In this document: in pieces, positions 20,835-22,966 of the stretch
Layout of the letters: each line of letters begins with the position of its first letter
How positions within the stretch are numbered: position 1 is the stretch's first letter
Source of the DNA: a virus
Taxonomy: Duplodnaviria; Caudoviricetes
Direction: 5' to 3' (one strand)
Length of the DNA: 24,647 nt
Virus record (IMG/VR): IMGVR_UViG_3300020374_001013
Coordinates: 1 to 24,647 of that record
Translations under genes and position numbers: made by a program
Notes under the pieces: model-generated
Told to the model about the DNA's origin: nothing
The model's database searches: none
The model's input: the letters and a program-made list of their open reading frames with translations, nothing else

Positions 20835-21236
20835 ATGCCAGTATCAAGAGCACCAAGAAAAAGAATGTACAGAACCATGCAAGGCCGTATGGTTGATATA
20901 GAAAAATTAAGAGGAGCAAACGAACAGACTCCTGCTATAGGAAACATGCGAGTAAATGCACGTGGAGATATTCTTGGACCTGGAGGCAAAATTGTGAAAG
21001 CAAAAGAAAAGGTAATGAAAGAATATTACGAAACTCCTAAAGGCAGAGCACAGGACAATCCCAGAGCAAAGGCTCCACCTAAACCAAAATTACCACCACA
21101 ACCAAAAGTGGTACAGACACAGACTATGAATCCAACAGCAGTCAAACCTACTGTGACAAAAACTGTGTCGTCATTTAAACCTAAAAAAGAAACTCCAAAA
21201 TCTGGAATAGATGCCGCACTTGACGGTATAGAATAA
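20835..21236 (+). CDS. Hypothetical protein with Pro/Lys-rich tail (start ATG 20835)
   Basis: TAAGTA at 20810-15, AAGGAG SD, then ATG; AIGNMRVNARGDILGPGGKIV motif. Confidence 0.75.
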   Translation: MPVSRAPRKRMYRTMQGRMVDIEKLRGANEQTPAIGNMRVNARGDILGPGGKIVKAKEKVMKEYYETPKGRAQDNPRAKAPPKPKLPPQPKVVQTQTMNPTAVKPTVTKTVSSFKPKKETPKSGIDAALDGIE

Positions 21237-21248
21237 TTTTAGTATAAT
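21220..21248 (+). promoter_or_regulatory. Sigma70-type promoter for the groES-cytochrome b unit
   Basis: TTGACG(21220)-N17-TATAAT(21243); ATG at 21257. Confidence 0.7.
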
Positions 21249-21256
21249 AGTCTGTA

Positions 21257-21703
21257 ATGGGACAAATAGAAGACTTACAAGCAAAAGGATTTGGATCACA
21301 CGGTGGTAAAACATGGACCGTGGAAAATGACATTATACCTTTAAAGAAAAGAGTATTGGTATCGCACATGAAATTTGGTGAAATAAAAACCAAAGGCGGA
21401 ATAATTATGCCCGACGATGATGGATCGGAGCACGGTATTCACCCAAGATGGGCCAAAGTGTATGCTGTTGGCAGTCAACAAGAAGATGTAAAAGTTGGCG
21501 AATGGGTTATGGTAGCACATGGAAGATGGTCAAGAGCATTTAAAGTTAAAAAACAAGACACAGAATTAGACGTTCGAATGATTGATGAAAATGATATTTT
21601 ACTTGTATCAGACAATGATCCTGGGGATGAAGTTGCACAAAAGGCTGGTTACGTTAATATGGGTGGTGCAAAACAAATGACAAAATTGCCAGGTAATGAT
21701 TAA
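21257..21703 (+). CDS. groES: GroES-like co-chaperonin
   Basis: IIPLKKRVLV, KTKGGIIMPD, AKVYAVG, DVKVGEWV, IDENDILL. Confidence 0.88.
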   Translation: MGQIEDLQAKGFGSHGGKTWTVENDIIPLKKRVLVSHMKFGEIKTKGGIIMPDDDGSEHGIHPRWAKVYAVGSQQEDVKVGEWVMVAHGRWSRAFKVKKQDTELDVRMIDENDILLVSDNDPGDEVAQKAGYVNMGGAKQMTKLPGND

Positions 21704-21706
21704 TGT

Positions 21707-22966
21707 ATGGAAGAAGAAAAAAAATATAAACCAGTAAACACAAACAAAGTTTCGGAAAACACATCACCCTTTAAAGGTGTATTGGGTTGGCTAGACAACA
21801 GACTTCCTATATTTAGAATGTTCAAGCACGAGTACTTGGATTTCCAAGTGCCAAAAACTTTGACATACTTCTGGAGTTTTGGTGCAATATTGACATTTTG
21901 TTTACTAGGTTTGATAATCACTGGTCTAATACTAGGAATGCATTATAAACCATCAACAGCAGAAGCCTTTGACAGTGTTGAAAAAATTATGCGTGATGTC
22001 AACTATGGTTGGCTGATAAGATACATGCACATGAACTTAGCATCGTTCTTCTTTATTGCGGTGTATATTCACATGTTCCGCGGATTGTATTTTGGTTCTT
22101 ACAAATCACCTAGAGAACTAATGTGGATCTTAGGATTGATAATTTATTTCTTGATGGTAGCAACTGCATTTTTAGGATACACACTACCATGGGGACAGAT
22201 GAGTTTTTGGGGAGCAACTGTTATAACAAGTTTATTTGGTGCCATACCATATGTTGGTGAAACAATCACATATTGGTTATGGGGTGCATATTCAGTCGAC
22301 GATCCAACACTAAACAGATTCTATGTGTTACACTGGCTTATTGCGTTTGTAATATTAGGTGTTGTTGTTTTTCATGTCATTGCTTTACACATGACAGGTT
22401 CAAACAATCCAACAGGTGTTGAACCTAAAGACACCAGAGACACAGTAAGTTTTCATCCTTATGTCACAACAAAAGATTTATTTGCATTTTTAGTTTTTAT
22501 TTTGATATTTGCGGCATTTTTATTTTTTATGCCAAACTATCTTGGACACCCTGACAATTATATAAAAGCCAATCCACTAGTGACACCTGCACACATTGTA
22601 CCTGAATGGTACTTTTTACCTTGGTACGCAGTGCTGAGAGCAATACCTGACAAACTAGGCGGAGTAATTGCAATGGTGTCAGCAATCGGTGTTATTGGTT
22701 TACTACCATGGTTAGATACTAGCAAAATTAGAAGTTCAATTTACAGACCAATCTGGAAACAGTTTGTATGGATATTGGTAGCAGACTTTTTCTTATTGAT
22801 GTATTGTGGAGCCATGCCAGCAGAGCAACCCTTTGTGCTTCTAAGTCAGATAGGAACAGCATATTGGTTTTTGTTTTTCATAGTAATTGCACCTGTTGTG
22901 GGTTGGACTGAGAAACCTACGCCTCCTCCAGCGGCTATACACCTCTATAAAAAATCCAAAAAATGA
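21707..22966 (+). CDS. petB: Cytochrome b of the bc1 complex (full length, alphaproteobacterial type)
   Basis: Heme ligands RYMHMN...YIHMFRG and VLHWL...[42 protein letters not shown]. Confidence 0.97.

Follow-up and report, generated by a model that had tools for sequence, protein, structure and literature searches.

What is a respiratory cytochrome b gene doing alone among phage genes, and how might a single subunit of the bc1 complex serve an infecting virus? The gene, petB, lies in the window analyzed here, a 24,647-nt stretch that is the whole contig of a virus record and carries tail, baseplate and clamp-loader genes. All window features given below are on the + strand. Baseplate, tail and virion genes (13330..19384; phrog_677, 958, 892 and 19200) set the viral context. 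They are followed by a short backbone ORF resembling DNA polymerase III alpha (20288..20809; domain and PHROG matches) and by a phage GroES-like co-chaperonin, the backbone gene immediately upstream of petB (21257..21703; PF00166, phrog_931, 80 relatives). Downstream of petB lie an 82-aa Cys-rich ORF without a family (22963..23211), a ParB-like ORF with an uncertain start (23070..23552; weak PHROG matches) and a clamp loader subunit cut by the contig end (23782..24647; phrog_168, E 8e-73).

Contigs from independent runs bridge both petB junctions. A contig of run X13 contains a 4,053-base stretch over 18800-22852 with 0 differences, and the downstream junction is spanned without differences by contigs of X12 (22586-23808) and X9 (22381-23700); X9 is possibly the source sample, while X12 and X13 are not marked as such. 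The same gene order around petB recurs in two relatives, L001 and L017. These two observations rule out a chimeric assembly, and together with the tail, baseplate and clamp-loader genes and the clean empty sites described below they refute the broader explanation of an assembly artefact or cellular contig, for which only a depth spike at 22115-22309, where petB shares words with other organisms, could be cited. L001 lies in a 172-kb sister record (G001) that is estimated to be only 47% complete, so the phage family is likely jumbo-sized. The 150 ORFs scanned out of 220 in G001 include those for DNA polymerase B, nrdAB, chaperones, SufB and an alternative oxidase. Searches of this fragment for gp23 and terminase gave no match; both are present on the petB-clade member G440. 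Where labelled, the petB-holding records come from marine metagenomes. petB in the window is a metabolic gene of host origin with viral neighbors on both sides, and the contig that carries it is truly viral.

The original prediction of an intact 419-aa cytochrome b was confirmed by the ORF at 21707..22966, which aligns over its full length to Paracoccus and Rhodobacter cytochrome b in the PDB (9fks_a, 2yiu_A, 29ye_B and 1zrt_C; E about 1e-139). PF00033 (E 2e-69) and PF00032 (E 3e-40) both match above cut-off within one chain; no PHROG family matched the gene. All four heme His (H108, H122, H209 and H223) and the WGATVIT (168-174) and PEWY (299-302) motifs were found as predicted, and PEWY and the cd1 motif at the Qo site as well as H228, K256 and D257 at the Qi site are all kept. 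In 15 of 15 sequences of the window subclade, the heme His, R105, R125, F155, G157, Y158, G169, I173, PEWY, Y307, H228, K256 and D257 are invariant. Rhodobacter residue names and roles, which we take to apply here, were mapped to PetB positions through the PDB alignment. Standard-code Trp was likewise borne out: 16 TGG codons and zero internal TGA codons rule out recoding. A single-sequence structure prediction of PetB (pLDDT 45, pTM 0.27) was set aside. By its domains, heme ligands and quinone-site motifs, the product is predicted to be a genuine bc1-type cytochrome b.

Relative to the empty site of L184, petB is a 1,260-bp insertion (21706..22965) bordered by a 4-bp AATG repeat at 21702-21705 and 22962-22965. 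The tight spacing noted in the original prediction is correct at both ends: only 3 nt separate the end of groES (21703) from the start of petB (21707), and the petB stop overlaps the next ATG in an ATGA at 22963-22966. A search for groES-petB synteny in other viruses, suggested as a check in the original prediction, recovered it in only a small part of the family. Among the best 80 of 162 groES relatives, which were kept for this comparison, petB follows groES in two (L001 and L017), the clamp loader is reached without petB in 46, and neither applies to 32. The 82-aa gene stands directly after groES in L180-L182, whose groES is 93-94% identical, and in L184. No petB was found elsewhere on 17 fragments of site-empty relatives (0/17). 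The window petB subclade also occurs behind nrdB in other family members, where G001 lacks petB, and close to a DnaB gene in L013/L014. Several different loci combined with empty sites indicate that petB moves among phages, and sequence comparison identifies the window copy as inserted late; most relatives with this backbone have no petB. In the same backbone, the 173-aa stand-alone DNA polymerase III alpha domain piece (20288-20809) is kept in 80/80 groES relatives, and G001 has a family B polymerase besides.

A strong promoter had been proposed for petB. The site in question, a sigma70-type promoter-like TTGACG-17-TATAAT (21220..21248; score 11/12), lies upstream of groES. The region holds 16 promoter-like sites compared to 12.6+/-3.5 in shuffles, including a second 11/12 site inside petB itself; since the count does not exceed that of the shuffles, the scan is weak by itself. 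TTGACA-17-TATAAT is present just before groES in both L001 and L017, where the surrounding sequence otherwise differs, and this motif shared by the two petB-carrying relatives suggests that the 21220-21248 site is likely real as the promoter of groES. This supports a promoter at the site, though not a 'strong' one. The site would likely drive a putative groES-petB-small gene transcript. Contigs from RNA runs match pieces of petB in 4/4 runs, for which DNA carry-over is possible. In run X15, 1,005 identical bases extend across the downstream petB junction, and because X15 covers 30/30 bins of a 20-kb stretch, carry-over could account for this match. A joint at 21597-23319 in X15 was not counted, having only 20 letters on one side, nor were uncovered parts in X16, X18 and X19 counted as absence.

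The original prediction also linked petB to nearby superoxide dismutase and Fe-S genes. These are real, namely a Cu/Zn superoxide dismutase (9642..10208; PF00080) and SufE and IscA-type genes (11507..12255; PF02657 and PF01521), but they serve as context only: they lie ~10 kb away, beyond the tail and baseplate genes, and petB was inserted late, so their position does not support the link. They are part of a stress cluster (8629-12255) of UvdE endonuclease, Cu/Zn SOD, radical SAM, SufE and IscA genes that is kept in G001, which has SufB besides.

As predicted, Rieske and cytochrome c1 genes are absent from both petB flanks, and neither was detected in the entire window. With no Rieske upstream and no c1 downstream, the window petB is not a petABC operon copy. 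To place this arrangement, we searched viral and metagenomic sequences; the metagenome scan covered 47/64 parts and the genome-contig scan 3/64. By name, petB was found on 67 distinct IMG/VR contigs, drawn from 59 viral loci of the first scan and 29 found by motif. None of the 59 viral loci, 42 of which have long flanks on both sides, carries Rieske or c1 beside petB, apart from one chance match (E 0.002); a Rieske motif adjoins petB in 77 of 80 cellular loci. PF02167 and PF00355 were absent from 36 viral records (0/36), all of them fragments at most 47% complete, and a whole-record search for c1 in another five, also fragments, returned none. Across the motif loci with a frame (145/146, viral and metagenomic), L320 alone has a partner gene beside petB, and a short petB ORF with both flanks present occurred at only 2/145.

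Phage petB falls into at least two separate groups, the window clade and one nested in SAR116 (100/98); L050 is a third, lone case on a long branch. Among 50,697 phage records, no petB relatives were detected except for one 38% match. This match occupies the last stretch of Helicobacter phage record PQ159902.1 (35708-36736) and is likely host flank. Several neighbors of phage petB were recorded. In some SAR116-like phages, a plastocyanin/azurin-like copper protein, a possible electron acceptor partner, is encoded directly upstream of petB (L036:5541-6005, L032 and L045); ribosomal protein S21 is also encoded near petB in SAR116-like phages (L029:4129-4374). A zf-CHCC (NDUFS6-like) gene is located downstream of petB in two unrelated petB lineages (L050:1432-1695 and L006); the 82-aa gene after the window petB was considered as kin and rejected, as it shows no similarity to that of L050. 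A uroporphyrinogen decarboxylase gene of the heme pathway (L003:6960-7934) is situated about 4 kb from a phage petB.

Analysis of dN/dS, suggested as a check in the original prediction, showed petB to be under strong purifying selection (0.016-0.042). Values were 0.016 for the window versus L001 (dS 0.85), 0.042 versus L017 (dS 0.19) and 0.025 for L001 versus L017, as low as for the clamp loader and below most neighbors. Among SAR116-like phages the median was 0.044 (94 of 136 pairs could be used), and among cellular Pelagibacteraceae it was 0.068 (16 of 28 pairs); for two SAR11-like phage groups, with 1/55 and 3/15 unsaturated pairs, medians were not relied on. petB is therefore intact and under purifying selection in the phage pool. 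A dN/dS far below 1 at dS up to 0.85 largely refutes the idea that petB is a passenger, a recent capture of host DNA that brings the phage no benefit. Although its absence from most relatives at the groES site and its scatter over different loci would suit such a passenger, the deep phage-only subclades and a GC3 of 0.31, inside the 0.23-0.34 range of the phage's genes, also contradict it, and we consider it highly improbable.

The closest cellular counterparts were found in SAR11 bacteria. A petB match was present in 381 of 401 Pelagibacterales genomes, a set that includes the two unpublished genomes G150 and G355. Twelve of the 401 contain a petB 71-74% identical to that of the window, the others listed reaching about 60-65%, and one more genome has a frame-broken petB of the 71-74% type. 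In L152 (G433), each of the three genes of a clade III pet operon is frame-broken, probably through sequencing errors. All 12 intact copies sit between Rieske and c1 in full petABC operons, and the clade III genomes with a phage-lineage petB gave no other petB match. One of the encoded proteins is identical to a protein that NCBI names Ca. Fonsibacter. The 16S rRNA gene of the respective genome shares 91.2 and 92.2% identity with two others of the 12-genome group; because these are the values given for subclade IIIa versus LD12 (PMC6018831), the group likely represents clade III as a whole.

Within these operons, petB has a history that differs from that of its neighbors. Clade III Rieske is closer to other SAR11 (0.665) than to other alphaproteobacteria (0.596), as is c1 (0.618 versus 0.473), whereas petB, with 0.580 versus 0.570, shows no SAR11 closeness. 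In trees, only short stems separate the Rieske and c1 of clade III from those of other SAR11; the petB stem measures 0.61. Given this discordance, petB is a poor marker in clade III. A mixture-model tree united phage and clade III petB (100/100), with clade III as sister to phage subclade C (96/93) and not to the window subclade; subclade C includes a record with gp23 and terminase. Clade III and the phage clade share 23 derived PetB residues, among them W210, A213 and a bulky residue at position 111. petB-petC adjacency is reported as universal in 135 Pelagibacter genomes (10.64898/2026.04.03.716430). As the W210/A213/111 type of petB occurs between Rieske and c1 in 12 SAR11 genomes, it is compatible with SAR11 partners, and the operon copy in cells is the best indirect support that phage PetB can work with those of its host.

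Cytochrome b, Rieske protein and c1 are textbook partners. We favor, with a probability of roughly 0.65, the reading that the lone phage petB is read from the groES promoter, that its product is hemylated by the host and pairs with host Rieske and c1, and that the Q cycle is thereby kept running. Transcription would occur by read-through from the groES promoter, and host machinery would insert heme and combine phage PetB with the Rieske protein and c1 of the host in a functional bc1 complex, whose activity would allow quinol oxidation and proton pumping to continue during infection. The presumed benefit is that the membrane core of bc1 is still supplied when a long jumbo-phage infection has shut down synthesis by the host. 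The original prediction had petB replacing or retuning the host core. Because the gene is viral, intact, lone, under purifying selection, recurrent and of a lineage found in complete operons, replacing or supplementing that core is the best reading; a retuned function fared less well, as most of the unusual residues are shared with clade III. The presence of petB at 2/80 groES sites and 0/17 elsewhere suggests that any benefit to the phage is conditional.

In a retuned bc1, phage PetB would change behavior instead of supply, with less superoxide from the Qo site, altered cross-dimer electron flow or inhibitor resistance. Several residues could be viewed in this light. Five positions are fixed in the window PetB subclade and nearly absent from 93 cellular sequences, including S175 (cd1 region) and W306, which adjoins the conserved Y307; position 151 is Val in the window PetB and the two sequences nearest to it but Met in nearly all cells; and the whole phage petB clade differs beside the bL heme ligands at positions 111, 210 and 213 (L111, W210 and A213 in the window). 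The roles of these positions are presumably those of Rhodobacter, and a literature search on the dimer-interface residues among them found no paper. However, the changes on the bL side are common to 12/12 cellular clade III copies, and the SAR116-like phage group, which remains close to the host type, has none of these changes, which means that phage copies are not retuned as a rule. We regard it as unlikely.

As a lone gene with patchy presence among close relatives, petB might also act as a decoy, extra copies of which could titrate partners: the protein would bind host Rieske and c1, heme or quinone and dampen respiration, or else function in superinfection exclusion or counter-defense. A decoy could dispense with catalytic residues, yet all of them at both quinone sites persist across three subclades; nor does such a role agree with the same lineage being the sole petB match in its clade III genomes, and we judge it quite improbable. 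For the favored reading, in which phage PetB supplies the host bc1 core, the host would be SAR11, most likely of clade III. Host-like genes of the phage point weakly to SAR11, with SufB 71-72% identical to SAR11 versus 68% and a permease matching only the two SAR11 among five genomes; DUF1178, deformylase and IscA comparisons provided no discrimination among hosts. A separate observation concerns P0025, a single 1,985-nt contig. Its cytochrome b matches the window at 96-100% identity through about residue 170 and, over most of the remainder, the Pelagibacteraceae copy L129 at 98-100%. Either the assembly joined two sequences at a conserved motif or phage and host truly recombined; the latter case would point to a clade I host.

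The shared clade III and phage petB lineage likely reflects gene traffic between phages and hosts. Regarding its direction, cellular petB nests among phage alleles in trees. AU tests, for which groups were named after the first trees had been seen, rejected clade III plus other SAR11 without phages as one clade (p about 1e-96) and all phage alleles as one clade (p 0.012; 4/12 rows being database proteins taken as sequences alone, without gene context), and did not reject phage, clade III and other SAR11 as one clade (p 0.108). A second cellular case may be L320, a 34% GC metagenome contig with a petB of phage subclade B (100/98). On its minus strand (L320:731-3159), this phage-clade petB is followed by c1 and by an ORF that we take, from a motif, to be coq7-like. 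The named nearest relatives of the L320 c1 are Rhodobacteraceae (about 50-55%), and no viral relative of it was found. L320 looks cellular, although the contig is short with its upstream part missing, and possibly represents a reduced, undescribed Rhodobacterales lineage.

Two scenarios fit these data. A phage-evolved allele may have displaced the resident petB of both the clade III ancestor and the L320 lineage. Alternatively, petB alone may have sped up on the clade III stem, with phages capturing it at least three times and one later move into L320. Cytochrome b is otherwise the slowest-evolving of the three bc1 subunits, which favors replacement by a phage allele, and the p value of 0.108 keeps repeated capture from the clade III stem in play. 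A class-wide motif scan of 401 alphaproteobacterial genomes for an outside donor gave only one chance match in an unrelated membrane protein. Tentatively, and at somewhat less than even odds, we propose that an ancient and divergent pool of petB is maintained by marine jumbo and T4-like phages, is expressed into host bc1 and has returned at least twice to bacteria, to the clade III ancestor (including freshwater LD12) and to a reduced Rhodobacteraceae-like lineage, where it replaced petB in place. If true, a core respiratory subunit of highly abundant aquatic bacteria would be of viral descent; whichever the direction, such a subunit has moved between phages and cells.

To our knowledge, cytochrome b has no D1-like repair cycle or fast turnover, which weakens a strict repair analogy with the phage-borne photosystem gene psbA. 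Phage petB may nevertheless best be read as a psbA-like respiratory auxiliary gene. Like psbA/psbD of cyanophages (PMC1484495), it encodes a single core membrane subunit from one of the host's electron-transport complexes and shows several captures, spread among phages and, probably, traffic between the phage and host pools; for psbA, transfer from phage to host is part of the precedent (PMC1484495). It differs in being respiratory, in its presumed alphaproteobacterial heterotroph hosts and in being known from sequence alone; in addition, psbA was present in 88% of the cyanophages screened (PMC1484495), compared to 2/80 for petB at the groES site. With alphaproteobacterial PetB/FbcB, the phage protein shares a full-length, unsplit b subunit with four heme His and Qo and Qi motifs, and is distinguished by the lack of adjoining petA and petC and by L111, W210 and A213 near heme bL. 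Clade III PetB (Ca. Fonsibacter and kin; P0041, P0101 and L140-L151) belongs to the same lineage, yet occurs in a full petA-petB-petC operon and forms its own subclade. The psbA paradigm would thus be extended from photosynthesis to respiration and to phages of abundant marine heterotrophs.

The original prediction regarded petB as not commonly reported in phages, which holds for the literature searched with the exception of seven K00412 petB reads from two virus-only viromes (PMC3877843), described there as reads, without genome context, phylogeny or a selection test. Electron-transport genes in viromes are mentioned in PMC4053976, the main text of which does not contain the word 'cytochrome'. 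The main text of PMC11360552 has no mention of petB-related terms, and its AMG catalogue may list K00412. In the literature searched, the coverage of which leaves out most subscription journals, we found no paper on petB carried by phages or on the clade III discordance.

Further features of the phage family deserve mention. An alternative oxidase, a second quinol outlet, is encoded in G001 (C1:103425-104003; L175:3425-4036) between DnaJ and peptide deformylase/Clp ATPase genes; present in 1/25 records only, it is not a regular petB companion. Permuted tmRNA is a form typical of alphaproteobacteria, and ARAGORN called one in G001 (C1:26051-26425). An outer-membrane efflux protein and an HlyD-like gene follow a large cadherin-domain protein in G001 (L173:1803-4887), with a similar arrangement in L010, and resemble a type I secretion module in a phage. 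Lastly, the window encodes a phage CHASE2-adenylate/guanylate cyclase (396-2228) that is 89% identical in G001 and is followed by two short paralogous membrane ORFs (phrog_18771).
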